The notes beneath the pieces were generated by a model. That model searched no databases. It was not told where the DNA came from and saw only the letters and a list, made by a program, of their open reading frames with translations. This document shows, piece after piece, positions 2,010 to 43,129 of a DNA stretch of 64,000 nucleotides (positions within the stretch are counted from its first letter, which is position 1; the number at the start of each line of letters is the position of its first letter). Both the position numbers and the translations under genes were made by a program. The DNA is from Amphiscolops sp. MND2022 (lineage: Eukaryota), in NCBI GenBank assembly GCA_964187785.1, contig OZ076409.1, positions 25,794,001 to 25,858,000 on the forward strand, written 5' to 3'.

Positions 2010-5000
2010 CTGTGGTTGTAAATACAAAAGATTAACATTACTTTGTTTGAAAAGGTTCATTCGTGTGGGCTGTCAGAGCTTTTTGGAAGTCAGAGGAACA
2101 AAACGACAAAACGACAATTATAAAATGTTATGTATGAAGAAACTGAAGTTTTCTGTGATTTCAAAAGAGGGTTCCAGAAGGGATCCCAAAAATTGAAGGC
2201 AAGCTCAGACAATTGCCATTGCGAAACTCCCATTTTTTGTTGAATTCGATAAACTTGTTGACTCCTGCTCTGTAAAGTTGCAGAGTTGCAGAGTTGCAAA
2301 GTATATTTTCTGAAGACTGGTAAAAGTACAAAATCTTAATTGATAAATATGTCTGAAAAACAAATTATGAACTCGTGGCAAACTTTATCTCTTCGCGGAC
2401 AGTGTCCTTCGAGTTCAAAAGATTTTATAACATTGAAATGGATAACTGAATTACCATCATCTGCCATTGAGAAGGCTGCCAAGTGGATTAAGACTGAGAT
2501 GCAACCCAGAAGGAGAACCACGATATTTAGGATCCCAAGTCCACCTTTGTCTGATGGGTGCAGCAACTCCGAAAGAACGAGTCCACAGAAAAACGCCACT
2601 GAAAAAGAAATCACTTGATCACAGGTTACAAAGTCATCAAGTTAACTTGATATCACCAAATACTTAATCGCATATAAGATCTTTTATTAGAAGTAGTCAG
2701 AACAATACCCTGTCTACAAAGTTGCTCATCACGGGGTTTAATTGCGCCAATTTCTAAAATCTCTTTCAACTCCCATTATTAGACTCAATATACTATTGAC
2801 GCAATTGTATCCTGCTCTAGTAGTTTCCACTCTTTTGAACCCAAAGAAAATCTCTTGGTTCCGAATTGCACTTTGTGGAATTACCCTCCATGGTGGATAG
2901 CGTTGGATGTCGCAGTGAAAAACAATTCAACAAACTGCGACTAACAGTTTTTGCAAATTGTTTGCTATCAACACATGTTAGAATTAAGAATGGTGAAACA
3001 AAGCACCAACCGATGAGCCATTCACTCCATTTGGGCATCAAGATTGAATCCCCCTCGAATGCCTGGACCCTGAATGCCACCGCCACAGTCAGCAGCGTTA
3101 TGAAGTAAATGTGACTGTAGAAGCACAGGAATGATGAAACATGTTTTCACTGTAAATGTCAACTAGTTTCCTTGATCTTTCGATGCATGATCATGAGTTG
3201 TCATGCTTTATGTAGACTTAGTGGTTTGTCTAACATTTCCAGAAATTGTTATATTGCCGAAAAACAGAGTACCATATCTTATTCTTGGCTTAAAACTTTT
3301 CAATTCGTCGGCAATGTCACCAAATATCAGGCCCACAAAATCGGATTTTTTGGCATCGGAATTGATCACTATCAAATATTTCATCCGATTGATTTAGAAT
3401 CGCAACTTTTTGCGCGAAGACGAGAAATTTCAATTGATAGATCATGACTTGCAAACGTTCGCGGTGCTCTCAAAATCAACAACTTGAGTAGGAAGTTTGC
3501 GATGACCAAATTTGTATAAAAAAATGAAGAACTAACTAAAACTCCTGCCTTGTATCCATTTGATTGGTGCGATAAACAGATATAAAGAAATCTCTACTCA
3601 ACATTAATTCTAAGCATAGCACAAAAATTAATTATTCAACATCCCTGGTGATGTAAAGCAGCATCTTGACAAATGGGATCCTGTTGATCTTGATCCACTT
3701 GAGGGGCAGACAGAGAACTACAAAAACAGGGGGTATGATCACGGCCACAAGCAGAAGTAGCATGTGCCACGTCTCCATGGCGTACTGTCCCATCCACACA
3801 TCGGACAGGTACTGCTGGATAGAAGCATGGGCGACCACCTCTTTTTGTTCACACTCTATCATCACGTCCAACATGCTCACCCCGTGAAGGTCCTCAGACT
3901 AGAAGAATGGCGCAAAAAGAGATAAAAACTGATAAAAACTTTGCCTTTTTTTACAAAAGTGACCCTAATTTCTTCATTTATTATTGGTTGTACAATTTAT
4001 ATGAACGTTTTTCGGCAAGTGCTAAACCGAAGATTGGGTATCTGTCAATAGAAATTCTTGTGTGTCATTGTAAAACTCGATCATTGTCGCGCCCCCACTT
4101 GGGCCTGCTTTGAAGGACCTTGAGAGATAGATGGCTGACTCTCATTACTAGTTTTGTCAATAACTGCCATCATCAAATCCTTCAGTTGACTAAATTCTAA
4201 ATGTAATTCATTGATTTTGCGTTCATAATTTTCTTTCATTTCAGATAACTGAGAAAAGATATCAGAATTGTCATTGGCGTCAGAGTCATTCGGGTTCGAT
4301 TGTGCCATGTTCGAGTCTTCTGGAGCGTTCATTTCAGATGGAGAGTCAATATTTTGCCGTTTCTGAGTACTGTACCTTGACTTAGACTCATATAATCGAG
4401 TGAAAACTATTTGTGAGTGAAGACTGGATTATTGAGATGTTTTAAGGATGTACTTTGTTGTTTATAGTTCAATGTCAGATTCCAAAATTCACTAATTCTG
4501 AACTGAGATGTTTTATAGATGAAGTTTACAGGAAGATTGAGTATTCAGCGCGTAATATAAATCAGAGAAAAGTATTCGAGGAAGTCATCCAATTCTCATC
4601 GTAGTGAAGATTTACCAAAAAGATTATTCAGAAAGGTTGCGTTATCGTTTCTGTAGATGAAATGTAGATGGTTTTCTAGTTACTTTTGACATAAATTGAT
4701 CAAATGAACGGTGGCTTGTCGCAATCTCTCTCTAAACATTCTCTAATGGCGGCTCCAGCTACAGCAGTTCACGTGTTTTTTCTGGTTGGTAAGACGCTAA
4801 ATCTTTTACCAACCTTCTTTCATTGGCCGTTGCCTGTTGGTGCTAATTGGTAAGTCACGTGACCGGTGTTGCGAACCGCCGCAGGGTGGCCGCACATCAT
4901 GGTAAATCTACATATATGCAAATAGCAGTGAATCATCAACTTTACAGTGTCGCAATTGCCTGCACAATAACAATGGTTGCTGTAGAGACAGAAACAGGAT

Positions 5001-8000
5001 GAATGCATTCACTATTACACTAATTTCAGGTCAAATTAAGACAAAATACATTGCGAGATGGGAAAACGATGTTTTCCGACTAATAATAGCACTAATAGAT
5101 GATGTTTCGCACGCGAAGATGAAAATGCGATGAAAACATTGGAATATTTACTAATTCCAAGTCTGGTTTAGCTCAGGATGAAAATGTGATGAATTGCAGT
5201 CATTCTCGCTCAAAAAACAGCACAATATAAAATTACGATGACAAAGAGATGAACTCCCTCCGTTATTTGCTATTTCCAGCACGAACTAAAGTATCGATGA
5301 ATTAGGGATGAATTTACTCAACAAAACTGATAATCCAGCACAGTCACTCTTTTAGGATGAATTAAAGATGTACTTTCTCATTTCCTCTTTCTCTATAGTT
5401 TTTCACGATGGATAAGCGATGAGTTGCTTGTCTTAAGAAATGAGAAGCACATTTGAAATTTCCAAGTATACTTTGACGATGAATTTAGGATGAACTAGTG
5501 AAATTAAAGTCCCGTAAAATCCGCTGATGGATTGATGATGAAATAAGTAAAAGTCCCACAATTAGTTCTTTCGCAACTCTGGGGATGAGATTGCGATGAA
5601 CTATGTTAAAATAGCGTCAGTAAATCCGCTGATGGATTCAGAGTAAGTTATCACAAACAAATTGATTTCACCGGTTAATCCGCTGATGGATTAACGATGA
5701 ACTTTAGGAAAAGTATCGTCACGACTATAGTCCTGAGGCGGGGAGCATGTAGAAGTAACGTGCTTCATCTCTTTTATATCTCTCGGTCCAGTCTGACCGT
5801 AAAACTTCTCTCCCTTGTCGTGACAAGCCAATATTCAAAGAAATATAGCACCTTATGGCTATAGGCAAGATCATTTATGCGGACACCGGAACTAGAGCGT
5901 TCAGTATTAAAAATATATATAACTTACACTCAGGGGGGAAAGGGATTCAAGTACAAGTAACGTAGGGTTGCTCACAACCATAGCTTTTCTTATATGACTT
6001 CATATTGCCCACATATCTAAGTACATAAGACATAGTTTTTACATTACAGATATTTAGTAAACTATATTTCCATCATGCTGGCATGACAATCATTTTCAGC
6101 TAACAACAGTTTCATTGATATAGTTTCTCTTTGAAATATACCCACTCTACATATTAGGGTCCAAAGTATTGATACCAAGGGGTTTTTTCAAAAGTGAGGC
6201 CATAACCGCGTTCGCGCCTAATTTTTATCTTAAAGTTAACATTTTTCACTATTAAAGATGATTGTTTTACTGAATTTGTAATCGAAGAGGGACTTTGATG
6301 ACTCACTTTGACAATTTTGGTGGTAGCATCGGACGTGGTGGAGCTGACAGCTGTCAAATCAACTGCCATCTTCTGGCAGAACTTGCTGGCTATGAACAAG
6401 TCTTTAGCCCTGTCCACCCTCACTGCCGACTGCTCCATGTAGTTAGCGGCCAGCTTCACGGCTATCTCCAGGGGGGCGGGAGACCACAGGATGAAATCCC
6501 TCACCATGTTGTGGGTGTCCTCCGAATCCCCGCACAAAATCAGGTCGAAGATGAACTGAAAACACACACACTTCAATGGAATTTTTAGAGTTGGTTAGAG
6601 TTGGGGGTATCTGGTCGAGATCTTCAGACGGGCCCTAATAAAATATCAATATCAAGATCTACTTGACTTATAAATGATTTTGAACCCGTGAAACAATTCC
6701 GTCTCATTCAAGTACCAATTGCATATGATCGTGGACCTGTGATACAATGAATATTGACTGCAATACTTGTAAAAACCGGCATTTTTAAAACACTCTGGTG
6801 TTCAACATTTGCTTGTAAAGTATATTGAAGGAATTGAAAAGTATTTGATTAATTGTTTAATTAAATGTTTCGTTTCTAATGTGATATTTTGTTCACGTTG
6901 TTCACTTTACCCTATTGTCAGCGATGAGTTTGTGTGAGTTGTGTTCCTTCTTCATGAGGTACTGCAGCGCCTCTTGATGGTTGTTGGCGGCGGCATAGCA
7001 GATGGGCTGTTTCAGGTCACTTGTCTCTACCAGGGCACTAGCCCCGTTCTGGATCAATGTCTGGATCACTGCTTGGTGGCCCGCCTTGGCTGCAAAATGC
7101 AGGGGCGCCCAGTGAGCCTGCAATTGGAACCATTGTTAAGTATTTTATCCTAACTGTTTATCGTTTCGACTAAAAATTTACTATTCTGACATTTTTTGAA
7201 ATAAATTTTTAAATTTTTAAATTTTTCATTTGCTCTTTGATTATCGAGTATGCATTATGGGTAGCGATATTTTGTGGTTTCTAGTCGGCGCTTCATGAAA
7301 TGAAACGCGAATATTATAGTGACTTTTTTCAATCCACGCAAACTGTCCAAAATAGTTCTACAAAGTTCTACAAAAATTTTATGGTGTCAAATTGAACCAT
7401 ACCTAGGGAACTGAACCAAAAAGATTTTTTTCCTTTTTTTGCGTGTAACATATTATAGAGGGCGAGACTAAAGGGCCCCTTTCAGTTACTTTCGGCATTG
7501 TGAAACTTTTTTGAACAATTTTTGCCCAAAGTGCCCCTTCAATTTTTTGATGTTTTGCAACAAGGGTTTTTCGGGTACTATAAAAGAATACTTGACACTT
7601 TGAAGTCCTTTTGCAATTTTTGAGCATTAGATATGGCGCCGACTTATGCTGTTCCCGGCTTGTTTGAATTACATTGTCAAAGATGTTTTAAGCCTTTAGG
7701 TATACTTTTTAGTCTATGTAAAAGATAGACTATGTAAAGTTTCTTTCGTATTGCAATTTAAAAGTTCGCTTTTATTGGGGTTTTTCAGATACACCCAGCC
7801 CGGTGTGAAATAGAAACTGATGCCCTGGTTGAAAATAGATACAATTCTTGAAAGATTCTTGCAAGATCTTGACAAAAAATACAAATCTTACAAGATTCTG
7901 GCAGAAAATACATTTCTTGCAAGAACCTGACAGAAAAATCTTTCTTGTAAGATTCTTGCAAGAAATACTTTTTCTGTCATCAGATTCTTGCAAGAAATAC

Positions 8001-11000
8001 ATCAAGGCGAGAGCAAACTTTTTTCGTCAAAAAATTCACTAAAAATGGCCAACACGGGCACCGGAGAGTTTCTTGTCCATTTTCGCTTCTAGAGAGAGAC
8101 AAACACAGACACAATCACTGGTGAAAGTTTCCTTTCTTAGATAAAAGGCGCTTTAGGAGCAAAAGAACCCAGAAGTTACAGTTACTAAGTTGTAATACAG
8201 TCGACCTTTCCAGGGAAAAAGCACGGCTCTTGCAGTGACTAGTTTTTTCTCCAGTGTTTTTGATCAGTGCACTAAAAACGAAAAAAAATCAATGGAACTG
8301 ACAAAACACGGAGTTGATAGAAAATTGCAAAGCACCGGCACTAAAATTCTGAAAAAGTACCCACGAAAAAAAATGCCATACGGTTGTCTTTCTGTCGAAC
8401 TAGAATATCAAAGGCACGAGGCTGAAGCATGCTACGAGGACTTTTTGGAACATGCTGAAAACAATCTAGAAATTGCATATCTTGCAAGAATCTTGCAAGA
8501 GAAATGTTTGTCTTGCAAGAATCTTGCAGGCTAAAGTTTCATCTTGCAAGATTCTTGCAAGATTTGTATTTTTTTCAACTAGGGTGATCAATGACATTTT
8601 GAACAGGCATTTTTGAAATTTCAGATTTTCTTTTACATTACTTATCTATCGGAACCATAAATTATCAGAGAATTCAGAAACTGTCAATCAATTATCAACC
8701 AATTTGGAATAGTAACATTCATTGGAGAACAAATATAGTATTGTATGTCTTGACATACGCAGAAATGTGTTCTCAAAGTAACCAATGAGATGTCAAAGAA
8801 ATGACAAATGTTAGAATGATTACGTCATCGGTGCGGTTGACGTCAGCGCCCTGACCAATGAGGAGAGTGACGAGACTGGTGTGTCCGTTGGCAGCCGCCA
8901 TGTGCAAAGCAGTCCTCCCTCTGTTGTCGACGACCCCGAGAAGAGAATCGTGTTTGGACAACATCAGACCAATCACAGACGAGTGACCCTGCTGAGCAGC
9001 CAGGTGAAGGGGTGTCGTGCCCTGGATAATGATATGAAAACAATCATGCATCAACGTCGATCAAGTATTAGTTAGAAACCCATGGTTGCAACTGAGACCC
9101 CATTGATGTTATGAGTGCAATCCCGCAAAACCCATCGAAGGAATTACATAATTCAGTCTGTTTGAACGAATGAAGTGAACTCTCCTGCTTACTTAGTAAG
9201 GTAAATAGTTGAAAATTAAATTTTTGGACCATGTTTCTTATAATCAACCCGAATAGAAGTCATTTTAATGATATCGATTCTATGAAAAAATTCTCAAATG
9301 ACGGAAAAGTTCAACCATATGTGAGCAATCTTCTAATATTGACTTAAATTTCAAAATATTGGGAGATCGGTCATCCGAAATAAATGAATGTGGTTTGCTC
9401 GAGATATCAGCAGAATGTGAACTCTACACTTAATACTACTTAGCTTCTCCGGGTGTCATTTTTTTCATACCAATATGACACATTCTCGCTGCAGGTAAAT
9501 ATTATGGAGCCACAAATGGAACGCTCTCATGAACGACAGCCCGCCCAAGTCCTCGTTAGAACCTGCTCTACAGAAGAGGTGTTTGGGGGTTGTTAATCAT
9601 AAGATTCGATTGACGAACAAACAAAAGACGCAACGCTTGACCTGAGGCATAGCAACACCTTGATAACTGAAAAACAAGCAAAAGTCAAGTCAAGTAATGA
9701 AGTGAACATCGCGGAAGACCTTCGCTCCGCCTTCAGCATTACTGACTACGGAATCAACTGAAAACAATGCACTCCAATTTGGTTGTGTAAAGTTCGAAGT
9801 GTGTAAAGTTCGATAACTTGTCGAATGTTCATTATTTCATGTTCAAGTGCTATCATACGTGGATTCTTGATTGATTGGCTTTCAGATTCGATGAAATTAA
9901 AATTTAAAATGATTGAATTTGATAAAGTTAATTTTGGCAATTTTTACAATTTCTCATGTCTTTTTAGTCGGCGCTTTATTCTTTTAAGGAAAAATGCCCG
10001 AATATAGCAGTGACCTTTTTTAGTCGGCGCTTTATCCTTTTAAGGAAAAATACCCGACTGTAGCAGTGACCTTTTTTTAGTCGGCGCTTTATCCTTTTAA
10101 GGAAAAATACCCGACTGTAGCAGTGACCTTTTTTTTCTTCAGACTACAATCCTCACACTGATCGGTCCACTTTTTAGAAACAATCCTGAAACCACCTAAG
10201 GCCGAGGCAAACTTGGTCCAAAGGGTCCCGCTTTCATTTTTTACTTTGTCAAGGAAACCTACAAAGTCGGACGTGCCTAGAGGGTCCCCCCTTTGGATTT
10301 TTTTGGCACTGTGCGACATTTTTTCGAAAATTTTTTCATGTCCCCAAAGGGTCCCCCTTCGAGTTTTTTTTGAAATTTTGCAACAGAATGTATGTTAATA
10401 AATCCAAAAGGGTCCCCCTTTTACATTTTTCGGCACTATGCGACATTTTTTGAGAGAAAAAAATCAAAAATTTCTTCCAAAAAAATTCCAAAAAAATGTT
10501 TTGCGCTTTTTGAGACTTAGATATAGCGCCGACTTTAGACGTTCTCGTCTTGTTATTCGGTACTTTATGAAATTATTCGCTACTATTCTACTTACTTTCC
10601 GTCGTGTTTTTAGTCGGCGTTTTCGAAGAAAATCCCGACTCTTACAGTGGCTAGTTTTTTTTTTTCGTCAGTTCAACGCGTACGTCCACTTTTTGTGCAT
10701 TAATCCAATTAATGCACATTTACCAACTTTTACCATATGTACTTAGTACATCCAAAGCGTCAAACATGAGATGAAAAGCGTCCCCCCTTTTACATTTTTC
10801 GGCACTATGCGACTTACCGGAAACTTCGAAAAAAATTTTCAAAAAAAAAATTTTTCTCAATTTTTAGTTTTTTGAGAGCTTTTGTTGTTTTTTCTTAAAA
10901 GGGTCCCCAATTCACCAATATTTTGACATTTTGAAGTCCTGCTATTTTTGAGCCTTAGATATGGCGCCGACTTGGGCCGTTCCCGGCTTGTTTTCTTGTC

Positions 11001-14000: not shown

Positions 14001-17000
14001 ACCGATCTTTCGGTGACATTGCCAATCAAACTTAGATCTTTTCGTAGAGCTACAAAGATTATGTTTATAAATGTTTGTAAACACTGTACTATTGTCTCAT
14101 ATTAAGACTACATCATTTGATACAGATAGCCTAGTTAGAGAAAGGTCGTTTGGCAATACTTTGTGTTAAAAGAGATTTTAGATAAAACCATTTGTTTTCT
14201 TATTCAAACCAAGAAATAGAACAAACTTTTTGTAACTTCTTGTACGTGTACTGTTTTTAGTCGGCGCTTTTCTAGGGAAAAGTGCCCGACTCTTACAGTG
14301 GCTAGTTTTTTTTCTTTTTTTTTTCGTCAGACTACAATCTCACTCTGATTGGGCCACTTTTCTTACAATCGAAACTACTAAAACTACTAGCATAAGAGGC
14401 CAAGTCCGGTCAGCGGAAATTAGTGCAAAAGGGTCCCCCCTTTCATTTTTTACCTTTTTTACGTAACCTACAAAACCGGAAGAGACCAAAGGGTCCCCCC
14501 TTTCAATTTTTTTTCGGCACTGTGCGAAATTTTTTTCGAAAATTTTTTAAGGTCTTAAAAGAGTCCCCCCTTCGAGTTTTTTGATATTTTGCAACAAAAT
14601 GTATGTTAATAAATCCCAAAGGGTCCCCCCTTTTCATTTTTCGGCACTATGCGACATTTTCGAAGTTTTTTCAAAAATTTTTCAAAAAAAATTTCAAATT
14701 TTATTTTGTTCCCAGTCGGGAAACAGTGATTTTCCAGTCATATAGAGCATGAAAGGCACACTTTGGGTGTCTCCAAAGTGTTTTCAAAGCTTTTCATGAA
14801 TACGTCCTGAGCATATTTAGAAAACTTTGCGCTTCTTGAGCCTTAGATATAGCGCCGACTTTAGACGTTCCCGTCTTGTTGCTTTCTTTATACGCTTTCT
14901 TTTCTTGGGACACTTATTAGGTGGCCTGCAAAAATAGTCCACGTACAAGAAGTTACAATTTGCCGAGAGAATCTGCCATTATTGTTTACAGCAAAGTTCA
15001 CAGACTTCTAGAGTTTCCTGAAAATGCATAACGTCAATTCACTTCAAAAAATTATTTAATTTTTGAGCGAATGAAGAACATTCGAGACTCGAGACCTCAA
15101 ACTTTGAAAACTGCAGCAAATTGCAAACAGTTGAAAAATTCGCATTTCACACTGCATTTCACGCATTTTCATTTATTCAAAAATTTAAAAAAATTGAAGT
15201 GAATTGACTTTATGCATCTTCAGGAAACTCTAGAAGTCTGTGAACTGTGCTGTAAACAATAATGGCAGATTTTCTCGGCAAATTGATAACAGTCCTGGAG
15301 ACATTTTCAAACTCTTGTTGACAAACAATGCAATTTTGAAACTGAAAAACATCCACGCCTTCCGTTCATTGGGTGAACTATTTTGTCAACGAACTGTACT
15401 TTAAAAACAATTTGCGCTTTCTCATCCTTAAGTTCAGCGCTGACTTGGACCATTTTCCATTTGCACTACCTTAAGTTTGAACACAGTGTTTATAACATAC
15501 CGAGTCTCGATCCTCTATGAGGCCCTCTCGATTAAACTTGGTCATGCTCTTCAACACAGCCAAACTGCCGTTGGAGGCGGCTATATGGGCACACGTGCGT
15601 CCATTACCGTTGGTGACGGAAGCCAGCTCTGGCTTATAGTTCAAGAACAGCTTCACAATCTCGGGGTAGTTGTTCTCAGCTGCCAAATGCAGTGGTGTTT
15701 GCTGGTCCTAAACAAAACATGATTCCGAACAACCGAAACTCATTTTCGAAATTACCACCAGATGTTTTGTTTGAAGGGGAAAGATCACTCGCGGAAAATT
15801 GTTCCCCAAAAATCATAATATTTTGCAAGAGTAATTCTGGGATTTTAGATTGATCATGATGAGTTTTACATCTCGATCAAACTTTTGAAAAACATTCGGA
15901 GATTTGTTGTCTATAATGACGCGTGAGTTGAGTTTCTCCGTACTAACCATGTCTTTGGCCGCTGCATCAGCCTTGAGATCTAACAGCACATCGCAAACAT
16001 CGAGTCTTCCTTCAAAGGCTGCCATGTGCAAAGGGGTCCGTTTAGCCTAGAAATGGTAGAACACAACATTGGTAACAACGCACAGAAACAAGTTGCTGCA
16101 ACTCAGTTCTTCTCCAACAGCAAAAAGGAAAAGGAATCAAAAACTTTTTTCTTTTAAACCTTCAAGTGACAAAATTAGTTTTCAACATTTTATTTGACAT
16201 TTTTTTAATCAAAAAATGGCACAATTTCAAGATTGTATTTCATTTTTAGTCGGCGCTTTTCCATTAAGGGAAAAATGCCCGACTATAGCAGTGACTGTTT
16301 TTTTTCTTCAGACTACAATCCTCACACTGATCGGTCCACTTTTCTTACAATTCTTACAATCTTGAAATCTTACAATTCTTACTTAGCAAATTTAAAATAC
16401 TGGCGCAAAAGCTTGCGAAGTAGTATTTTTACATCATCTAAGAAACTCAAAGGGACCAAAGGGACTTAGAGTATTTTCGGCTCTGTGAGACTTTTTTCAA
16501 AAAAAAATTCCCCAAAGGGTCCCCCTTCAATTTTTTGATATTTTCCGACAGAATGGATGTTGAAAAATCCCAAAGGGTCCCCCCTTTCAGTTTTTTTGGC
16601 ATTGTGAGACTTTTTTTCATTTTTTTTTCACCAAAATTGCCCCTCCTTCAATTTTCTTCGATGATTTGCGACAGAATGGATGAAAAATTTCAAAGTGTCG
16701 CCTCTGGTGTCGCCTCTGGGTTTTTCCGGTACCGTAGAAGAGAATACTTGGAAGTCCTTTCGCTGTTTTTGAGCCTTAGATATGGCGCCGACTTGGGCCG
16801 TTCCCGGCTTGTTTCTATTTAACACTTGATTTTCTAGAAAAAATGGAGTGTAAAACATACCCAACTGCAATAAGGACATTTTTGTTAGGAGAGGCATTTA
16901 GTGGGGTATGTTTTACAAACTAGGAACATTGTTTTGGATGATATAATCGGAAGAAAAAACAACCACAACTCTGAAAACATTGTTCTGGGACTTTTTTTTC

Positions 17001-20000
17001 TTTTCGCTCAGCCAAACTAAACTATATTGTTTGAATTCAGAGTTCATTTGCTTTAGAAGCTTTCATCTGGAATCTACTGTTGGTTGTAATGGAGGAGTTT
17101 CACTCGTGACTGTTACAAATCTACTCTGACGTTGGTGTGATCACGGTTTTTTGACATGGCAATGAGGGTTAATTTGTTTCGGGAAAATGTTGATACATCA
17201 TGTTTTCAATTGGAAACTATTCATTCTTTAGACAGTTTGTATGTTTGAAGGTGTAGGATTCTGATTGTTAGAAAGGCTGTGGTGATAAAATATTCAAAAT
17301 AAAACGCGAGGGTTTGAAGGTGACAGTTAATCAAAAATTCAATTCAGTGTTGGGTGGGTTACAGTGAGTGCGAGTTTACCCTTAAAATGAAAAATGGCTC
17401 GACTCACCGCCTGAAATAAAATGTGTACATTGAAAATTTTAAGTTTAAATTACATTTTTAGTGAATATCTACAATGGAAGAGTGACAATGGATGAACGTG
17501 GGATATGACATCAAAATTTGGTAAATCATTTGGGACAAATTTCATAGGGTTAAGTGGAAAAGCTTTGAGAGTGAATTTGATTAAAGGATAATTATGCGCA
17601 GTGTTTGAGCGAGATTTTGCTACAAAAGTAATGAATCAAAAACAAAAAAATCAAAAGCAAACCATACCAAATGTAAATGGGCTCAAATTGAAGTTAGTCA
17701 CGGAATGGCGTCATGCACACACCGGACAACAAGGTAATTTGCTTTGATACGTTTACATCTTCATTCATAGCGAGACTTTTTCATATCCTTGTAACTCTCC
17801 GTTCAAGAGCTCTCAGTAATCTAACCATAAAATCAATTCGCAGTTTTGTCAATTTTGAAAAGAAAACATTATAACATAATCATAACTTATTCACAGAACA
17901 AGAATCTCTTTCAATGCATGCATACAAATCTTTGATGATTTCTTCAAAAGCAATAAAAGTTTCTTCGAGGTTGATAAAAGTTAGTGAAATGTAATTGAGT
18001 GCTCTTACGAGTGATAGGATGTCGAGTTGTGCGCCGTGTGACTCAATCAACAGCTGGCACAGACGGGAGTGTCCGTTTTTGGCCGCTAGGTGGAGAGGAG
18101 TGACTCCCTTTCTGGTGCGGGCACTCACAAATGCATGGTGCCATAGCAACTCGTCTGCCACGTCCGTGTTCCCGTTCTCACACGCAAAGTGCAGAGCCGT
18201 GCTTCCTTGCTGAGCAACAAAAATTTCAGTGAAAAAGTTGGTTATTTTGAATTACAAAAAAATTTTAGTAACTATTTGAGCAAATAGTTTGATAAATATC
18301 GAAGTTTCTGTGTAGCGATCAATGTTCATCCAAGCCACAAAAGTGGCATCGAGGAAAACAAAAAAATATGATATACTTGACTTGAGGACTTGAGCAGGAA
18401 AAAATTTGAAACCTATTCTAAGTCCTAAAAATCAATTTGTTGAATTGGAGGTGTCAGAAATCATTTTTCATTTCTTTTGAAGGTGTGAGGATATTACGCC
18501 CAAGGACATTAAGCCTAAAGCGGACATTACGCCTAATAATTATAAATACAACAAACTTTCAAAATATTGGGTATAATGTCCGCTTTGGGCGTAATGTCCT
18601 AGAGCCCTTGTGGATATTGCAGCAAAATTCAACACAATTTCCAATTTTATTGTTGATCAAGTAAGAAAACTTTCGAATCTCCAGAAAGATCTCGAGCGCA
18701 AATTGATACTCGACATCATTCAAATGAGATGATATCGTCCCATATCTCCGACCTACAAGTGTAGAAAAGAAAACTATCACCAGTTTTTTAGGAAAATGAA
18801 ACTATTTATTGTTCACTCGATATTACGCAACCCAGTCAAATGTCACGAAAGATATGGATTTGTTTTACCTCGTCAAAGAGATCAATTCTGGCATTGTTGT
18901 TGAGGAGGATCTCGACCACCTCTGGGTGTCCGTGCTCTGCTGCCACCATCAGGGGAGACCAGCCAGCCTGTGTGCAAACAAACAAGTACTTTGAAAAATC
19001 ATCGATGCACATGTATGTCCGGATTGCATCTGGTTCCATACAATGCTTTCATGTTTCTATGTATGAAATCGTATAGAACCATATCATATTCGTATGGAAC
19101 CACATGATATTCGTATGAAATCACATGATATTCGCATGGAACCACATGATATTCGCATGGAACCACATGATATTCGCATGGAACCACTGGTTCCATTTGG
19201 CAAATGGTTCAATACATGGAATCTCATGGAATCATATGGTTTCATATTTGAAGTTGTATGAAGCCGTGTGATTCCATATTTGGAATGGTCCTAAATTACA
19301 TCACACCGGGCCAACTCGCTCGGAGCTCTTCAGGCACTGCAAAAAATACCGCGTCAATTCCCGTTCTCGGGCAATTGAAATCGAGCGTTATTTTTGGCAA
19401 AGTTGGCCGTATTTAACGTGTTTTTGCTTGATATTCGCATTTTTTTACCATAATTGTCCCATACACATTCATTGAAAGTATCCAAGAAAATTTTTTCATT
19501 TTTTTCTTCAAATTGTTTTTTTCACGTGGAAAAAGAACAAAATATTGAAAATCTCAGAGGTTTTGATAGCTTCATGACAGTGCATCTTTGTCAACGAAAT
19601 GAAAATTCAACTAATGGAAGTTAGTTTTTCCCAATTGAGCAAGATTGCTGCTCCAAGTTTTCCGGTCGCGAACTTGTTTTACAATTTTGCTTTTTCTTAT
19701 TAAAAACGTAGCCTTGGTTGAATAAAAGCAGCATGGAAAACTTCGCAGCTGTTTCAACTATGGGTATTTTCAGCTGAATTATCGTCGTATCCACTGTTTT
19801 CGAACACGCAGAAATCCTTTGGACTTTGCGGAACTCTTTTAACATGAAACGAAAGAAATTATCCAGTAACAGCAGAAATAATACCTCATTCCTGATGTTT
19901 ATCGTCCGAATTTGGTTGTTCTCTAGGGTCTTTGACTTTCCTGAATTACCCTAAAACCACAAAAACCTTTTACACTCTTATATTTGGAACTAAAATTAAC

Positions 20001-23000
20001 AAGACGGGAACGTCTCAAGTCGGCGCTATATCTAAGGCTCAAAAAGCGCAAAACATTTTTTTTGGAAAAAAACTTGAAATTTTCGGAAAAAAAAATTTTC
20101 GGAAAATGTCGCACAGTACCGAAAAATGTAAAAGGGGGACCCTTTTTGATTTATAAACACGCATTCTGTAGCAAAATAACAAAAAACTCAAAGGGGGGGC
20201 CCTTTGGGGACATTAAAAAAATTTCGAAAAAAAAGTCGCACAGTGCCGAAAAAAATCGAAAGGGACCCTTTAGTCCCGTCCGGGCTTGTAGGTAACGTTT
20301 AAAAAGTAAAAAACCAAAGGGGGGATCCTTTGGAATAATTTACATGCGTTTCCCTGGTATTTAGTTTCCTTTAGTTGAACGTTAACGTTCGTCGCTTCGA
20401 GTCTGTCTTAAATAAAAAAAAAACGAGTGACTGTAATACTCGGGCTCTTTTCTTAAGAAAAGCGCCGACTAAAAATATATATCAAAAGAAGGCCGGAAGT
20501 TCAGAATTGGTAAAACAAATTTTTCAGCTTTGTTCGTAATTTGAAAAACTGGATGAATTTTTTTGCAGCTGATTTAATAACACTGAGAAAAAATCCCAAC
20601 TTTTTACACACATATCCATTAGAAATACTTTAGTGCAATTTCCCTGATAAAATAAAATCCCTCATTTTTCAATCTTTTCAACCGTCAATCGCTTCACCAG
20701 TAGTTAATTGATACCAGCGCCTTTGTCCATCGATCAACTTTTTTTTATCGGTGACCATATATGTGAAATTCAGTGCAAGAAAAAGAAGGTTTCGGTGGTG
20801 ACCAGTTATTAGTGGGGTTTCATGGAAGGAGGATCGGTGGAAAAAAAACAAGTGTATTTGAGGGGGGGGGGTAAGAAACATGGTCCCAGGGAGTTAATAT
20901 ACTTGGTGGAGAAATGTTTTGGGCAAAAATGAGGTTAGGATCAGTTGGAATAAAGCAAATTTGTAGTGATTCATATAAATAGGTGAATGGGAAGCTGAGG
21001 AATTTTTACTATATACTAAACCTTCAAAAGCATTTGTAACATCTAAAATATTCAAAAGCTGATTCAAAAGCTCTTTTTTGAAAATATGGAATTATTGCGT
21101 TTATAAAGGAAATCTATTATAATTGATGACCAAAATTATTGAAAATAAAGTATGATTAAATATAAAAAATATTTTAATATTATCATTCCGCTAGGTTGAT
21201 GATACCAATGTTTTTCCTTCAACATAACGAACCATTCTTCGAATCCGAAAAAGAATCGAAAAGTGTTATTTAAGAGTTAAATGGACGTGTTATTTAACCT
21301 AAGGTACCGCAATTTCCTAGAAAGACATTTTCGCCCCAATATGCATCAGGTGCCAACAGCTGTCTGAAATGGCATTTTGACAATAGTAAACGAGCTCATT
21401 ACCATCAGAGGAAGACTTATAAGCTGACATTTTCAGACAGATAGGGGATTACGAAAACTTTTGACTGAATGCCCCCGTCACATGACAGTTAGAAGTTTGC
21501 TAATCGAGGGAGACTGTCACTCTTCTTCAAAAATCACTTCAGTCTAGGAATTAACTCCAAGCATATTTGGGTCAAAGTTCGCATCAAAGTTAACCCAACG
21601 TTCATCAACGTGAGCATTATAATGTGGTCAATAGTTGAAAATAAACAGCGTGAATGATTGCAATTATAATTTAATTATATGCTCATTATAATCGTTTTTA
21701 TCATCGACCTTTTTATAGAAAAAAGAATCAATATATCGCAGTACCACTTCCAATACACTAATTTGCTGTTATGATCGTACTCAAAAACGTTGACTCCGAG
21801 GTAAAAAACCATCGTAAACGTTCGAAGTGAACAATCTACGATTCGTGGCTTTTATTTGTTTCTTGGTTCATCAACAAAAAGTATGCAGCTACCTAGGATG
21901 ATGTATTTTAGAACAATAATTACGATGCATTCATTTTTTTCGAACCGTCACTCGAACCGGCGTTTTTTAAACTTCAAACAAATCAGCGAAATTTTGATTT
22001 CGCAAATCTTCCTAATGGCGTTTTTCTGTACGTAATTATTAAAAGCTTCATAACATTGTTCCATCGTCAGCAACTTCAATCATATTTGGTTCAGTTTTAT
22101 TTTGTTATCAGAAAGAAAACAAGCCAATCACGGCATAGGTTGGCGCCGAACTTTAAGGCTCCAAAATAGCAAAAGCGTGAAGTTTTCTCTTCCACAGTAC
22201 CCGAAAAACTCAAAAGGGGTTCTTTGTCACATTTATACTTTTGCCATTTTATCGGTGGCGGTAAAACGGATTTTCTCTATCTGTTCTCAACCTCTCATTT
22301 AGTGTTCTAATCATCCTCTGCACCTTTCCGTTTCCCCTATGATCTCTAATCGGACACACTATATGACTAATATAATTTTCTTTACAAAATTGTCCAAAAT
22401 TTTCGTTTTTAAACACCGTTCCTGGGTCAGATCTTACCCTTTTCGGAAATCCATGCTTTGCTATATATTCACTCATGAATTCATTTACTTTATCGGCTGT
22501 AGGGTTAGGTAAAAGTAACGCCCCCGGCCAACCTGAGTTATGGTCTACTGGAACTAATAAGTACTTTTTGTTCTTTTTGGCATTTTGGAATCGTCCGGCA
22601 AAATCTATAGAAATTTCATCATTTGGATTTCCGGCATTTGGCAATTTTCCATACTCGTTTTGGGTTTTTAAACACTTTATGTTCTTACCTGCTTTTGAAC
22701 ACCCTTGGCAGTTATTTGCCTTCTCAATAATTTCCCGATTAATGCGGGGCCACCACACGTCCGCTGCCTCGCGCAGCATTGCATCTCGGCCTGTATGCCC
22801 GATGTGTATTGCATTTAGCATGTTCTCCCTCATATTCTTTGGGATAACCAATCTTTCGTCAAAAAAAGCAAGTCGCGATCCTCAACGCTAAAGAAATTGA
22901 ATTTTTCTCGCCACGGTGGCGGTAATCGAGCAATTTGGGAGGCGTTGTTAACTTTTACCAGTTTTATTTTTTTCAATAAATGTCGGTCTTCTTGATAATT

Positions 23001-26000
23001 TGCTTGCAGATACACTTTATTAATTCGCGCATTGCTATATTCACGTAATTTTGGCTTCGTCCATTTTGCTTGAATTACGCTTGTTATGTAATTTGTATAA
23101 TTTGTTACTCTCACGCTTCACTGTATTGTTTGCTTTATTTCTCTCAACTGTCAACCATTGTCTGTTTATACTTTTGTCACACTTTGGCGTTTGCTCAATT
23201 TTGATTGGTTGTTGGCTTTTGCCAGTAGTATTTTCAAAGCCTTTCTCAAATTCTTCTACCACATTGACTGTAAACCAATCATTGAACAATTGCTCTGCTT
23301 TAACACTTTTGCCTTCGTATGACGACGGGTGGCGAGATAGATAATCGGCCATTCCCAGCGTTCTAACTGGTGTGAGGACCACTTCAAAATCGTATGATAA
23401 TAACCTATCTGCCCACCTCGTCAATCTACTTGAATTTGTCTTGTTTCCTCTATTTGACTTCAAGACACTTTGTAGCGCTTTGTGGTCCAATACAATTTTG
23501 AAAATCGTTCCGTACACATAATTTGTGAAGTGTTCCACAGACCATACCACCGCAAGCAATTCTAATTCGTTTATTGAATATTTTTCTTCAAAACTTGTCA
23601 AAAAACGGGATGCGTATGCAATGGGCTTCCAACAATTTGCTTTTTTTTCACTTTGCTGTAGCGCTGCTCCCAGCCCTTTTTTGCCAGCATTGCAAATTAT
23701 TCTCAACTTGTTTTGTCTTTTGAAATGTGTTAATACGGTATTTTTCTTGACTTTTTCGTTCACTTCTTTAAACGCTTTTTCATGTTTTTCAGTCCACTTC
23801 CAATCTGCGTCTTTTTTCAGTATGTCTCTAAACGCAAAACACAACGAAGCTAATTCGGGTATGAATTTATTCATTTGGTTCACCCGCTCCTAAATATGAG
23901 CGTAGATCTTTTATATTCATTGGACGCAGTCTTTCTGTTAAGCCTTGTACTTTTTCATTTAGTGGCGATATTCCGGATCTTGTTAATTTGAACCCAAGCC
24001 ACTCAATTTCATCTTTTGCAAATTGGCAATTTGTTGCCTTTAATAATAGATTTGCTTGGTTAAGTGTTTCTAGTATTTCTCGCACTTTTGCCAAACGTTC
24101 CTCCTTAGTTCCTTTAGTTACAATTAAAATATCGTCTATGAATACAAAAACTTCACTAAATTTTACTAGAAGAATATCCATAATTTTTTGAAATTCTGTC
24201 GGCATAACCGTCAGACCATAAAATCCAGTAATAAAACGATACGTGCCTGTTGACTCTCCTCCTATTATCTGAATTGCAATGTTTAGACGTGAGTACAGTA
24301 GTGTGAAGAAAGAATGCGACTTAGTTGCTCAAGAAGGCTAATTTTGCAGTCTCATATCTCCGAAACTATTCGAAATGGTTCAATTTGGTAAAAACAAAAG
24401 TTTCTTGAATTTTTGCTATGAATACAATAGTTTTTGTTTGAAATTTTCAAAAATCATTGTGTCCGAAGTTAGAAACATGTGATTTAGGGAGGAAAATAGT
24501 TGAAATTGCTAATTTTGCAGAAAATATCAGTGACCCAATAAATATTTTTTGATAAAGTTTGTATTGCAGATACACTTGAATCTCTCGAAAACGGAGATAA
24601 AATTTGTTGTTGGAATATTTGGAAAATGTATATTGGTGGGAGTTTTACCAAGTGTAAGACTGAAATTTCTATCTTAATACATGTATTTTCAATTTCACTT
24701 AACAAAAAGGTGCTCCCATTTTTGTTTTCTTGGTGATCTCCACAAACAAAAACTATCATGGGTTTGAGAAAGATCAGAGAAATTTTTTGGGATAATTTTC
24801 ATGTAAAAAGTATCCCCGAAAGACGGCAAACAATTGAAAATACTGATTTTTGCGAGATCGAGGCTCGTTAAACCAATGGTATTTGAGGAGCGAAGCTTTG
24901 TGAACCAATCAGATTAGAGAACTCTTTGCATTCTGAGCAACCAAGTCGCATTCTTTCTTCACACCACTGTATATCCAATGGTACTTGACCATATGCGTAT
25001 GTCATATCAAGTGATCCATACCAAGCTTCGCCTTCTTCATTATCTAGTTTTTCCGCTACCATATCTATTAGATTTTCCAATTTACGCATTTGACTTTTAT
25101 CTTTTCGATAGCTTGGTTAAGAGCGCGTGCGTCAAGTGCTATTTTAACTGATCTGTCCTTTTTGACTGTGATGACTGTTGGCTGAATAAATACATTATCG
25201 CTGATTTTGTCAATTTTCTCAATATGGGCTTCTGCCAATAATCGTTTAATTTCCGCTTCAAACGATTTTTGTAATTGGATTGGTACTCTTCTACCTTTTG
25301 CTGAGTAATTTTGGCTTCATCTTTTACGGTTATTTTCACCTTATGATTTTTTATTTTCCTTTTTCTCGAAAATAGTTCTGGAAATTCTTGACGAACATTT
25401 TTGTTTCATCGCTTTGTTTCTCGCATTCTTCTTTTTCAATTGAATTAACAATATACTCATCCTTATCTTGACTTTTGGGGGCAATCTCTATCTTCAGCGT
25501 GGATAACCACTCTCTTCCAATTATTGACTTCACTCCTTGTCTTGCTACTAGGATCCTTGCCTTTCTCACATACTGGTTGCCTACTTGCAATTCACAAAAC
25601 ACATAGCCTAGTATGTTCAGAGACTTTCCGTTGAAATCCACGTACTTCTCGTCATCCACCTTTCTTCGAACCTGCAATTGGTCTCTTTTCATGATTATCT
25701 TGATTTCATCTACAGCAAATATTGTGACCGGGGATCCCGTATCTATCACTGTTTTGAATGGTTGTCTGTTAATGAATCCTTCCATGTAAAATGGCTTCGT
25801 TCTTCGTTTCTTCATCTATCTTCAAGACCATTGTGTCTTCGTCTGTGTCGTTTTCATCCTGATCGACCATTTGCACTCTTTTGGTAAACTCTTTTGTCAT
25901 TTCTTCGTCCTATGGCAGGCGAAGTTCTTACGAATTTTGTCTTTTTGTTTGGCGTTACATCAACGCTCGAAATGCCCGTTTAGTCCGCAATAATTACAAA

Positions 26001-29000
26001 TTGTCTCCGGTCCTTTGCAAGAATTTAGATGTGCGCTTGTGAAATTTCCTTTTCCACACCTCCAACATTCTCGGTCGTTTGGTATTTTGTTAATTGCGTA
26101 CACTGGCTCTTCTTTTATTTCGATCGAAGTCTCGAAGTACTCGGTTGACCAATTGTCTTTTGACGTTTTAGACATTCTTCAAAGGCCACTGCAAATTGTA
26201 AGGCTTCTCTTGGCGTATCTTCCGGCTCTGTGCATAATTGTTCCTGCACTTGTTTGTTTTCAGGATATCATATTCAGGATAAAATATCGTACACAAGACT
26301 TTCGGACTGGTTACCGAAATCACATTTTGACGCTAGGCCTATTAATACGTTCCAAAATTGATGTAAGGATTCGTTTTCTTTTTGTTTTCTCGAGAAAAAC
26401 TTATGGCGGCCCAGGGTTCTATTTCTTCTTGTTTCAAAACAGTCTCGCCAATTATTCAGTATTCCCTCTAGTTCGACGGTGAAAATGATTATATTTGGAT
26501 ATTCATCCATGAGCTTTTTTCGCCCGACTTTCCCTATCGAGAGGTATAATAAACTCACCACTTTTCTTTGGGCCATGTCTCTTGTCATACCCCCAATTAG
26601 GGCAGCATTTCTGGGGTTGTTCTGCTCTTCTTCCCGTGTGATTTCTTCTACCAAGATCGAGTGGCGCGCTAAGACAGCTAATTGAAATAGTTGGATCCAT
26701 TGCGCCCAGTCAACCTCTGGTTGCTTTTCGGTCTCTTGCCAGAAGTACGATAATCCAGGGATTGGTGCATTTCTACTTGAATTGTCTTCATGTTCATTAG
26801 CGCGCAGCGCCATGTTTTAGCGTAAGGTCTGAATATGGCAGAATAAAAAGAATTGGCAACAAACTGTGAATTGGCGTTATCATGCAGAACACTGAACTAG
26901 CGAGTGTTGCTTTTCTCACGGTCAAGCCGTTAGCAGGTACTTTGGCGTTCACATCAGATTACTTCATTACTGGAGTATTACGTAATCTACCACAGGCGAG
27001 CTTTTGGAGACATTTAAAAAATTTTCGAAAAAAAATCTGACAATGCCGAAAAAAATGGTACAATTTGGCCGCATAAAATTTTGTAGAACTTGTAGAACTG
27101 ATTTAGTCTATTCCTCTGGATTGAAAAAAGAGTCACCTTGTCACTATTACAGTCCCGTTTCACTTCATGAAGAGCCGACTAAAAAATGTAGCTTTAACGT
27201 TTAAGAATTGTCAGAGATCTAAACTTCAGCAAACATAGAATTTGAATTACTACCCAATAATTACTACCCAACTACTCCCATAATTTTTAGTAGGCGCTTC
27301 ATGAAGTAAAACGCGACTGTAATAGTGCAGCTATTTATTTTTTTCAAGTTTGTGATTTTTAGCAATTTTGTATCAGCAAGATTCATAATATCATTTGAGT
27401 CAAATATTTTGAATCCTACATCTACTCATTACAGATTCATGTTCGGCATGAATTATATTGAAAAGTCGCCATTATTCTTTAGCAGTAATAAGACCAAGTA
27501 GAAATTTATTGCATAACAGCTGAAATCTGACCCTTGCCAGCCTTTTGATACTTCGGGGTCAAATTTTATTACACTTTGTCGGTACAAGAATACCATCGGT
27601 ATGCATTATAAATACTCTCCTTTAATCAAAATACGTAAAAAACTTCACAGGCTACCAAGCCATTCTGCAGGCATGACCTCAAACGAAAAAAAAAAGATTT
27701 TATCTTGAAGGAACTGAATGCCTGCGCATATAAAGTTTTCAAGTTGCATCGATGTTATTGCACTTCACTTAGAATGCGACCGTTGTTTGCTCCTCCTTCT
27801 GAATGCGACTTGAATGCACTCTTAAAAAAAGTAATCAAATAGCCATCCCCGTGTTCCTAAATGGAAACATCTTTTTTTCTCTAAGCCGATTGGAAAGTTA
27901 ATTAAAACTGTTCTATAGATTATGCATTGCAGATTAGTCGATTCATACAAATGGAAAAGTAATTTTCCACCACATGTTCATCAAATGCGAATTTAGTGGA
28001 ACAAAACTAAGTGAAATTGCTCCATTAGTGTATGGTAATTTTGAAAGCGAAAGGTCATTCTAACTCGCGATTTTCTGTTTACGCAAGTAGTTACGAACCA
28101 TGTTTTTCCAGTTTTTTGAGCAGATCAGTGATTGAAATGAATAGTTTTTGAAAGACAGTTTTCCACAATTGGGTGTTTTGTGAAACGTAAATTACTGGAT
28201 TGAAAACTTGAAAAAATAATTCATTGAAATGGTAATGAAGCTCCTCAATAAAAACATTACGAAACACAAAAACATATAGGGAAATAAAACATTCTTATCG
28301 ACAACCTCTTGGACTAACTGAGGCGGGTTGCTATTTGTGTCAATATAGTTTTTTTTCCGAGCCAGCGTCAAAAAAGTAATTAGAAAATGGTGAAAATTTG
28401 CAAACAAATTACATTTCAAAACAGTTGCTTTTTCTCAAAATAAACACGCTTTAAGTTTTGTGTTTATTCAATGAAGCTTCAGCTATGAGAAATACAGGCA
28501 ATTGAAAGCCAAGCTTTGGACTGAACTACAATCCCTGGTTGAAACTGATTGAAATTTTTACAACTTGTAGGTTACCAAGCTGATTTTTCATGATATTACA
28601 AAGTTCTTAAAGATACTTGCGTTAGAATTTCACTGATTCAATTTAATTTTATCATAACGCCTCAAAGATGCATCCTAAACTTGGCGGTAATTCTGAGACA
28701 CGAAGTGTTGCAGGTTGCGTAAAGTAGGTATTCTACTTTGAAAAGCAGCTGTGAAATCAAATATTTACGGCGATTCCAATCCAGATAAACTTCAGACACA
28801 TTATCAGTTTCAAAGTAGTGTCATATTATTTGACCAATGGTGATTACATAAGTTCCTTACATGGGAAATTTACGCGTGGCAACGAAGTGATAACGACAGT
28901 GAAAAGTAGAAAAACTTTCAGTTTTAATTCAAATAGTGGAAGCTGCATTGTAATCCTGCAAAAAGTTTCCATGTGTGCACCCTGACTTTTTTTGTTTGTA

Positions 29001-32000
29001 AAAACAAAATTGGCTTGGATGTTCCCATGAAGTATGTAAAACGTTCAAGCAATCTCGACTAGGGAATGGAAGTTCGTCAAAAGTCTCTATGATGATGATT
29101 CAGCTACGGTTGACATATTGAATATGGAAACATTTATTCCGAATATGTTCTGAAACATATATTCATTGTTTTCCGTCCAAATTTCTTTCGGTTCAAAAAC
29201 GCAGCAGCGTTTTCTTCCAAAACTTGCCATTTCCCAATTTTTAACCAAGTTGAAGGGTTTCACCCATAGAATTCAACTGACGTAAATTTAATTTCGAGCG
29301 ACATGTATTTGATGATTTTTCGGATGTTTTTGGTTGACCACAACGAGAACCCCGAATTCACCCCAAAAATGGAGATTAATTTTTTACAAATCTTATGCAC
29401 TGTTTGCCAAATTTTCGACAGATTCTGTTGATTTAAACATTATAACCGTCTAACAACGAATGAAGTCGTTGTTGTGAAGGATTGTTTTGTGGAGATGGAA
29501 CTCAGTGGTAGAAAATTGTCACAACATGACCTAAAATTAAAAAAAAAACATAATTATTCCATTTTTAATGCAATTTTTGTAAATTTTCAACGATTTCGTA
29601 AATATAACTTCAAACTCGTTCATCCACAATTGAATCCGTTTTGCAGTAGGATTCTTAAACGGAAATATGCAGTTCAGCATTTGAAATATGCCTTCAACTG
29701 ACGCCAAAAACGTTGAGAAATCAATATGTTTCCAGTTTATGTCGTTTAGCATGCAATTGGTATACAATTGTTGAAGGTTTTTGTGAGTTAATAAGACTCA
29801 AACCGTTCAAAGACGAATAAATTAGCTATGCAGTATGTCGTTTGAAGGGAAAGATGAAGTGTTTTGATACAATGAGTCGGTGAATCAAAATATCTATATT
29901 TTGAAACTTTCCTGGAACCTTTGTGAAATTTCGCTGTTAACAATTTGGGAAATCTTTAACAATTGGAGTCGATATCCATTCCGCTTTTTTGAAGCGAATT
30001 TGTCCGACTTATAATTGAAAAAAGCATCACCATGACGCTTAGAAAAGTCAAATATTTGAAAGTTTCCAATTTTCGACAATGCTAGTGAATATTTGTGAAA
30101 AGTGTCACGAGTTAAACGGTTCTAAAAGCTCCAGACGAAACATCCGACTTGGCAGTACGCCTTTTGAAGAAATAATTTACAATTTTCTAGTGGAACAATT
30201 AATCGGAATGACCCGAAAAATGTTGACATACAGAAAATTTTCAGAAAGTTCTGAAAATTTTCTGTATTTCAACATTTTTCGGGTTTTTCATTTTTATTGT
30301 TTAAATTTTCAATCAAGTTCGTTGGTTGGAATAATGAAAATATTCAACAACAAGCAAACGCTTGATCTGATCCAGGAAGCTTTTTGAAAGTCAATCGCTG
30401 TTTTGAGCAGGAAAAGAGCCTCGAAAAAACCCTAAAATAGTGAAAAAACTGAGAGTTAATCTTTTTCATATTGTTTACAAAGATTAGAACATACTGGAAC
30501 GTTTTTGAGTTAGGCTTTTCAAAACTTTGACAAAGAAAAAGCTATGCAGCTTGCTCATTTGATGAGAATTTCGCCACTTCGTGCTCAACAATCAGTATGA
30601 ACTCAATAGGCCGAAAAATTCACACACCTGCTTTTTTTCTCTGTCGTGGACAAGATTTTGAGATTGAATGGAGTAGTTATCCAGTGCGCTTTTGTTGTAG
30701 AAACACATGCAGATTGTGTTAGAAAACTGCCTCCTAAGGACCACAAATTAATCGAGAAAATAATCATTTTCCAGTTTTTGACAATTTCAGTTTTCTCATG
30801 AAAATTAGAACAATAACATCTGTTCGAAGTTCAAAAAGCTCGGAACGATAAAACTAGGATTGAACTGAAAACAAGGATGACTTTGGAGCTTTCCAGAGTG
30901 TCGCTCTTTTGAACACTTTCAAATTGATCTATACTAATACATTTAATTGAGCCAACGCTTTGAATTTAGGGTATAGTTCGGATATAACGAACAGAACTAG
31001 AAAAGTAGCAAAAATGGTCTTTTTGTCCGGACAAAATTTTAAAGTTTTAGACTATTCAAAGCAATGTACAACTTTTCAAATCTGTATGATACTTTTAGGC
31101 GGATAGATTATCAAGTGACAGTTCCAATATCAAACTCTTTTGGCTGGTTTCAATATCAAACAGTTCCAATATCAAACCAATTTTCTCGTAAAGGCGTTTT
31201 TCAACATTTTAAACTAAACTACGCTTTTTGGGGTATCCTCGTCTTGTTCAGTCCATAAAATTCTGTTCTTTTTTCTTGTCGAACAACTTTTTGGGGCTGT
31301 TTTGAGTGAGTATACAAAAAAAATTCAGTGCCACTCCATATTTTGTAAGTAATTTAACTACTGTGGGGTTGCATTCATACCAACTACGCTGTATCCGGAT
31401 ACAGATTCAATCGTACAATAGATTACAGCTAAAACTTGAATACACATTGACGATTTCGACACCAAATGTTTTGACTCACTTTTTCCTCACTAGCACCTTC
31501 GTGCATGTAAGCCAAAAACGCAGAAAGAACAGAAGAGTTTCCACCTCGGGCGCAGTAATGCAAGGGGGTTTCAGCCGTCTGAAAAAAACATGCTATACGT
31601 TAACAGCAAAGTTAGAAAAAACCGTTTCGGAAGTTGTTCATACCAAAGTGGAGCCTTTAAACAGATCTGCTTCGTACTCGAGAAGTAGTTTCGCTATCAT
31701 TAGTTCTTCTAGTTCATAATGTGCGCTTTCTGGGGTTAACTCGGCTACAAGGTGAACCGCAGTCTCACCTTCCTGTAAACAGAAGAACGTGACATTGTAT
31801 GCATACAATGCATATCAAAAGTACAGTAGTGATGTTATTAAAAGCCACAAAAGGCAAATCTCAAAATCGAATATCTCTAAAACGGTAGCGTTTTTTTAAA
31901 AGTGATAAAAGTAAAATCTTCCACGATTTTTATCTAGTTTACAAATATGCTTGTTTGAAGATTATGCCATTTTTAGCCAAATTTAGGTCAAAATTGAGGT

Positions 32001-42920: not shown

Positions 42921-43129
42921 AAATCCGTGTATTATCAGCCCACTTAGGCAAAACTGTGTATTATCAGCTCACTTAGGCAAAACCGTGTTTTATCAGCCCA
43001 CTTAGGCAAAATCGTGTATTATCATCAGCCCACTTAGACAAAGTCGTGTATTATCATCAGCCCACTTAGGCAAAACCGTGTCTTATCAGCCCACTTAGGC
43101 AAAACCGTGTATTATCAGCCCACTTAGGC
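42921..43129. repeat. Minisatellite, 7 x 29-32 bp (aaaaccgtgtattatcagcccacttaggc)
   Basis: Head-to-tail units with no spacers. Confidence 0.9.

Follow-up and report, generated by a model that had tools for sequence, protein, structure and literature searches.

A dense array of GATG-N7-GATG dyads in a solo Ty3/gypsy LTR of Amphiscolops: a probable protein-binding platform with a possible element-encoded reader

A solo long terminal repeat (LTR) of the Ty3/gypsy type in the genome of Amphiscolops sp. MND2022 carries 15 copies of a short dyad, GATG-N7-GATG, in which the two words keep an exact 11-bp spacing while the outer spacers have drifted to background identity. The LTR lies in a 64,000-nt stretch of contig OZ076409.1 (assembly GCA_964187785.1, forward-strand positions 25,794,001 to 25,858,000), referred to here as the window, in whose own numbering all coordinates are given. 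Judged from the sequence, it is quite probable that the array is a selected protein-binding platform on which a DNA-binding protein would act cooperatively in support of the LTR promoter. The fuller reading, in which this protein is also encoded by the element and derived from a transposase, we place at somewhat less than one half (roughly 0.45).

The LTR spans 4085..6088 on the minus strand (2004 bp), has TG..CA ends and is flanked on both sides by the target-site duplication ATCAT (4080..4084 and 6089..6093), which bears out its earlier assignment as a solo LTR. The ends of hAT transposons carry terminal inverted repeats and an 8-bp target duplication, and the TG..CA ends together with the 5-bp duplication rule out a hAT end here. 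No second copy of the LTR was found within the window. About 100 N-terminal codons of gag lie within the LTR at its minus-strand 3′ end (4085..4391), so that on the strand of the element the dyad reads CATC-N7-CATC. A tblastn search of the LTR with a full-length Gag homologue (P0010) returned matches at 4391-4332 and 4350-4063 in two frames, with the gag start at 4391 and a frameshift early in this copy.

Fourteen dyads had been listed on the plus strand by the first-pass annotation, and every start that it gave is exact; it overlooked a fifteenth on the minus strand at 4586-4600, so that 14 of the 15 share one orientation. Fifteen of the 16 matches to GATG-N7-GATG in the window fall within the LTR, whereas 100 shuffles gave 1.59 matches per window on average and never more than 5. 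With a correction for the choice of word and spacing (4-mers of three or more different letters, spacing 4-30, 300 dinucleotide shuffles of the LTR), the best shuffle count was 4 versus the 14 observed. Plain tandem repeats excepted, the rest of the window has no 2-kb stretch with a comparable array. Of the 35 GATG words on the plus strand of the LTR, 28 belong to an 11-bp pair; the other strand holds 8 words, and no spacing between 7 and 15 other than 11 occurs more than once.

Although GATG-N7-GATG is exact as a core, the motif is longer than had been proposed and includes AT-rich positions after the word: the base at +6 and at +7 is A or T in 15/15 dyads, +15 and +16 are A in 11/15, and +18 is T in 14/15. 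The half-site is thus GATG followed by an AT-rich tail. Allowing one mismatch added just one overlapping match on the plus strand and two on the minus strand. Identity among six phased units is 1.00 in the words, 0.44 within the dyad and 0.28, which equals background, in the outer spacers; alignment of whole spacers gave 0.47 versus 0.48 for shuffled sequence. The earlier description of the spacers as largely unrelated holds insofar as they are near random, but it missed local duplications of 60-84% identity. Self-comparison of the LTR aligns 5470-5533 with 5576-5638 (77%), 5518-5554 with 5677-5714 (84%) and 5118-5260 with 5237-5379 (60%). The 22 bases 3′ of the dyad are slightly above chance (0.35 versus 0.29, p 0.013), and a faint spacer word recurs in five of seven units, by a pattern written after the units were seen. 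An inverted element, AATCC-GCTGAT-GGATT, overlaps first half-sites in three copies (starting at 5518, 5621 and 5677; 5518..5692) and could be either a second site or a duplication remnant.

Read from the 5′ end of the LTR, the array begins with five plus-strand dyads at gaps of 47-71 bp (5407, 5478, 5526, 5584 and 5685; 5407..5699), a group that contains a broken slot at 5631 and recent local duplications. Six plus-strand dyads follow with a 59-61 bp period (5057, 5118, 5177, 5237, 5296 and 5356; 5057..5370). The period had been described correctly from 5057 to 5356 and also reaches, in phase, the second of the two broken slots, at 4998. Beyond a 342-bp gap stand four further dyads at 70-79 bp. 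Three of them are on the plus strand (4436, 4507 and 4656; 4436..4670), where they would fall in the 5′ leader at 45-280 bp before the gag start. The fourth is the inverted dyad (4586..4600, minus strand), which has the same 11-bp spacing and fills the rhythm of this leader group; the last dyad of the array is 45 bp from the gag start. Dyad-to-dyad gaps outside the phased block are 47-79 bp. The dyads thus extend over 1.26 kb, eleven upstream and four downstream of the 342-bp gap, and both ends of the LTR are dyad-free for 350 bp.

The dyad-free gap (4671..4997, minus strand) is predicted to hold the core promoter, which would place dyads on both of its sides. Words read from the gap sequence include CACGTG at 4856-4861 and 4770-4775, CCAAT on the minus strand at 4846-4850 and 4822-4826, and ATGCAAAT at 4916-4923, which we take to be E-box, CCAAT and octamer-like sites for host factors. 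A sigma-70 scan stayed at background and is not relevant to a eukaryote. CpG is undepleted (0.9) in this LTR, in the LTRs of the second element described below and in the window as a whole, and therefore gives no hint on methylation.

These features suggest a mechanism in which a unit of about 60 bp was duplicated in tandem to form the array, after which selection would have held the words and their 11-bp spacing while the spacers drifted. Invariant words and spacing within an old tandem repeat fit selection for a binding site. The half-sites are one helical turn apart and so lie on the same side of the DNA, where a dimeric or cooperative sequence-specific protein is predicted to bind the double-stranded dyads flanking a host-type core promoter and to keep the LTR promoter active or unsilenced. 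The presence of an inverted dyad with exact spacing fits recognition of DNA rather than RNA. The reader would most likely be encoded by this retrotransposon lineage, as a BED-finger protein of the catalytically reduced hAT-transposase type. Our estimate for this part of the proposal derives from a sister element in which this grammar occurs together with such a gene, from the age and diversity of that cargo family, and from the fit between a word with an AT tail and BED binding.

The sister is a full-length Ty3/gypsy element of 16.4 kb at 46285-62707 with the target duplication CAACT and an LTR pair identical at 1613/1633 positions. Its pol order is reverse transcriptase, RNase H, integrase; its gag also starts within the LTR, and its gag and protease frames are broken. 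The solo LTR has this gag position in common with it, as well as MVT at the junction of LTR and primer site, and the two Gag sequences are 25-30% identical. The sister code comprises 15 exact ATRCG pairs, 10 bp apart with a 33-bp period and all on the sense strand, four of them in each LTR and seven internal, near the cargo. GATG-N7-GATG is absent from the sister element, and the solo LTR contains two ATRCG words and no ATRCG dyad. The earlier suggestion that each family has its own code is consistent with these observations: the codes are mutually exclusive, each precedes a gag start within its LTR, and in this LTR copy the dyad words have stayed constant as the spacers changed.

An antisense multi-exon gene in the sister (54051-58339, minus strand) comprises a BED-like finger, closest among named Atlas clusters to zf-C2H2_12 and zf-BED (score 0.93), and a hAT-like last exon. 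The family of this last exon counts 225 representatives at 50% identity, which indicates that the cargo is widespread in the clade, and at least five cargo groups occur in long contigs. The frame at 56372-56890 resembles by eye what we take to be an RNase H-type core without the usual acidic residues. Distant cargo relatives with 21-46% identity (P0208, P0210, P0221, P0243, P0253, P0257 and P0320-P0343) come from short contigs in other data sets, with one found in JGI as well, so that the cargo is probably common to more than one host. Neither a cargo alignment searched against JGI contigs nor the Pol of the sister searched against viral contigs gave a locus. A second candidate gene, the sense open reading frame (ORF) at 59983-61149 (plus strand), has an acidic disordered front followed by a conserved CxxC and two helices; it ends inside the 3′ LTR, and in relatives its last codons form the LTR start. 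Its relatives form 54 clusters with 620 members. Neither Pfam nor the Atlas assigned it to a known family or fold, and with a model at a predicted local distance difference test score (pLDDT) of 48.5 the fold search was uninformative. That the start of the solo LTR might likewise encode the end of a sense ORF found no support: no stored protein matches that 11-codon frame.

The family of the solo LTR was followed through its Gag. An 82-residue query picked out 109 homologous proteins from 193 candidates (ENA contigs throughout), several of them about 500 amino acids long with a zinc knuckle (PF00098); no locus for this Gag was found in viral, JGI metagenome or prokaryote contigs. The Gag clusters hold 870 sequences, 801 of them in clusters whose representative continues into the internal region. 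Two clusters are large, with 188 and 380 members, and the closest group consists of 11 proteins, mostly singletons, that are 78-88% identical among the matches listed. One of the 152 proteins in the Gag list (P0006) extends upstream into the dyad region of the LTR, where its residues are, by eye, compatible with a kept 4436 dyad and an altered spacer, too little to count.

Linkage between this Gag and the known cargo was then examined indirectly, with matching contig sizes as a proxy for one shared contig. The comparison covered 143 Gag contigs, 81 of them with internal Gag; it left out short contigs from other data sets, 31 fragments that form a group with about 50% identity to the exon in the window, and 75 unlisted representatives. 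As a positive control, two of the six contigs of one cargo group matched the list for the sense ORF. For the P0207 group just 0.6 matches were expected, so that the test was powerless there. Among the 82 long cargo contigs there was a single match, to a Gag fragment confined to the LTR and belonging to the closest subgroup (P0382/P0009, 187 kb); it may be due to chance.

Several results weigh against an element-encoded, transposase-derived reader, and some also temper the case for selection. There was no match between the 82 distinct long cargo contigs and the 81 internal-Gag contigs, and none of the 54 sense-ORF contigs matched a Gag contig of the solo-LTR family. Linkage would predict 4.8 matches for the P0215 group, 3.1 for the P0213 group and 5.5 for the sense ORF, and the probabilities of seeing none are 0.009, 0.04 and 0.004, respectively. 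Given these expectations, neither the P0215 group, the P0213 group nor the close sense-ORF family is probably the cargo of the solo-LTR family. The largest cargo cluster has 32 members, compared with 188 and 380 for the Gag clusters. The hAT assignment itself comes from a relative of the cargo exon, modelled at pLDDT 69, for which the Hermes hAT transposase was the top hit among 48,161 chains; the match is weak (Z 5.6, root-mean-square deviation 6.8, 168 aligned residues) and falls under the trust level of the search tool, and neither Pfam, Foldseek nor a sequence search matched the exon. Comparison of the part of the LTR that precedes gag with stored proteins gave no hit. Neutral decay to 60-77%, the identity of the duplicated blocks, predicts about 2-6 of 17 slots intact where 15 are observed, but because the dyads themselves served to define the slots, this test is biased towards selection. 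Finally, a 60-bp period corresponds to 5.6-5.8 turns, which places successive dyads out of helical phase. Of the two readers that the first-pass annotation had allowed, a family-specific protein and a host dimeric factor, the first drew no support from this indirect check, in which three cargo groups and the sense ORF family came out negative, and the second is nearly as likely; we lean slightly against a close homologue in the solo-LTR family.

Comparison with known systems offers the closest likeness in the VANDAL/VANC and Spm/TnpA transposons of Arabidopsis. The targets of VANC and TnpA are described as dense, same-orientation short motifs that arose by tandem repeats, and TnpA as transposase-derived (PMC5735166; 10.64898/2026.08.24.746577). 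As in those accounts, the motifs of the solo LTR are short, dense, mostly in one orientation and in non-coding DNA, with a tandem duplication origin and a word that differs between related families; within this window the motif is confined to its family. The plant systems are DNA transposons with single motifs of 8-10 bp and demonstrated binding, whereas here the carrier is an LTR retrotransposon of an animal, its dyads have a fixed spacing and its reader is putative. The array would work like the VANC/TnpA motif clusters, although membership in that group is at best tentative given the putative reader and the different element class.

The grammar of a 4-bp word with an AT-rich tail, repeated many times, also resembles hAT subterminal repeats and CGGBP sites, a likeness of grammar only (PMC10368747, PMC8097297). 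The BED finger of Hermes is reported to need a 4-bp word with AT-rich DNA behind it (PMC10368747), and BED fingers and hAT-derived CGGBP factors are described as binding cooperatively, with diverse specificities among related proteins (PMC10368747, PMC8097297). Hermes pairs are, in these descriptions, quasi-palindromic and stand beside terminal inverted repeats, whereas the dyads here are direct repeats inside an LTR. For the foamy virus transactivator Tas, response elements are reported in the LTR U3 and in an internal promoter (PMC3798896); the array of the sister element is likewise found both in the LTRs and at internal places, with a sense ORF beside the 3′ LTR, although this ORF lacks likeness to any family or fold. 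The long region between pol and the 3′ LTR in the sister, with antisense, probably DNA-binding genes and arrays, recalls the Retand (Tat) gypsy elements of plants, whose arrays, for the most part internal, are described as plain 8-100 bp tandem repeats, and whose antisense ORFs are TRP28 (PMC11963269). The antisense genes of the sister have no Pfam match to TRP28. In the open-access literature, a search that left repeat-library entries aside, no fixed-spacing dyad codes or hAT-derived cargo were found in animal gypsy LTRs.

The array could instead be an ordinary LTR enhancer of duplicated sites, bound by a host factor that recognizes direct repeats one turn apart; different families would have captured different host factors and needed no regulator of their own. 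This alternative is plausible, if short of even odds. All signs of selection on the words fit it equally, the contig test gave no link to known cargo, and host-type words stand in the gap between the dyad groups. Repeated host sites are common in LTR U3 regions. We know of no host factor for a GATG-N7-GATG site, however, and the position of four dyads downstream of the presumed promoter argues against the alternative, as does the sister, in which the same kind of array accompanies DNA-binding cargo and internal array copies.

The strand bias raises the question of an RNA signal, in which CAUC words, mostly YCAUC, would form a cluster for an RNA-binding protein acting in export, splicing or packaging. 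In addition to the 14/15 co-oriented dyads and the 35 versus 8 words by strand, a pyrimidine precedes CATC in 13/15 first and 12/15 second half-sites, and the words resemble YCAY clusters. The 11-nt spacing, exact in 15/15 dyads, and the inverted dyad fit a double helix, and eleven dyads lie in the presumed U3, which is transcribed in the 3′ LTR only; we regard an RNA signal as improbable.

A functionless, neutral remnant of a tandem repeat would account for the duplication traces of 60-84%, the faint spacer word in 5/7 units and the two broken slots. The invariant words beside outer spacers at background (0.28) speak against it, the inverted dyad and the leader group have just the motif in common, and Tandem Repeats Finder reported no row in 4085-6088, which, with the background identity of the outer spacers, also led us to reject a simple tandem repeat. 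Such a remnant is likewise improbable. Least probable of all is an array that acts elsewhere in the life cycle, in positioning chromatin, tethering the DNA copy or integration, or that is read in trans by the protein of another family: the 1.26-kb spread on both sides of the presumed promoter and the potential of transposase-derived readers to bridge DNA ends would suit it, but both LTR ends are dyad-free for 350 bp and the single other family examined has a different word.

The LTR lies in an intron, and in the same orientation, of a NOMPC/TRPN-like host channel gene, whose flanking exons were placed within 3632..7135 on the minus strand. The segment 6154-6540 matches the NOMPC chain 5vkq_A (E 2.2e-8), and ankyrin-like and membrane-like frames are also present in this gene, whose presence marks the host as an animal. 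Elsewhere in the window, several dispersed non-coding repeat families (D4, D6, D8, D12 and D13) occur in both orientations in host introns over 7278-40929. Long inverted repeats with 1-146 bp between their arms, MITE-like (miniature inverted-repeat transposable element) or hairpin-like, lie at 41997-42333, 14956-15285 and 30194-30301, and plain tandem repeats at 19069-19187 (21 bp), 42919-43131 (29 bp) and 9961-10135 (56-57 bp). A stretch at 22249-26816 that is T-rich and C-skewed contains several minus-strand frames of 150-280 codons, possibly another retroelement remnant.

LTR elements are reported to make up half of one acoel worm genome (PMC9911081). Extending the element-encoded reader beyond this LTR, we tentatively consider that a clade of animal Ty3/gypsy elements may have captured a catalytically reduced hAT transposase as its own factor, for transcription or anti-silencing, with a private dyad code in each lineage that would be read by its own factor only: GATG, 11 bp and a 60-bp period here, and ATRCG, 10 bp and a 33-bp period in the sister. 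Sequence-specific, element-encoded anti-silencing with co-evolving motif arrays has so far been described for plant DNA transposons. Its presence in animal LTR retrotransposons, if true, would help to explain how many LTR families stay active in one genome, and the at least five cargo groups would offer a natural panel of reader/site pairs for shifts in DNA-binding specificity. Should the reader be a host factor, the array would still present an unusually clean site grammar.

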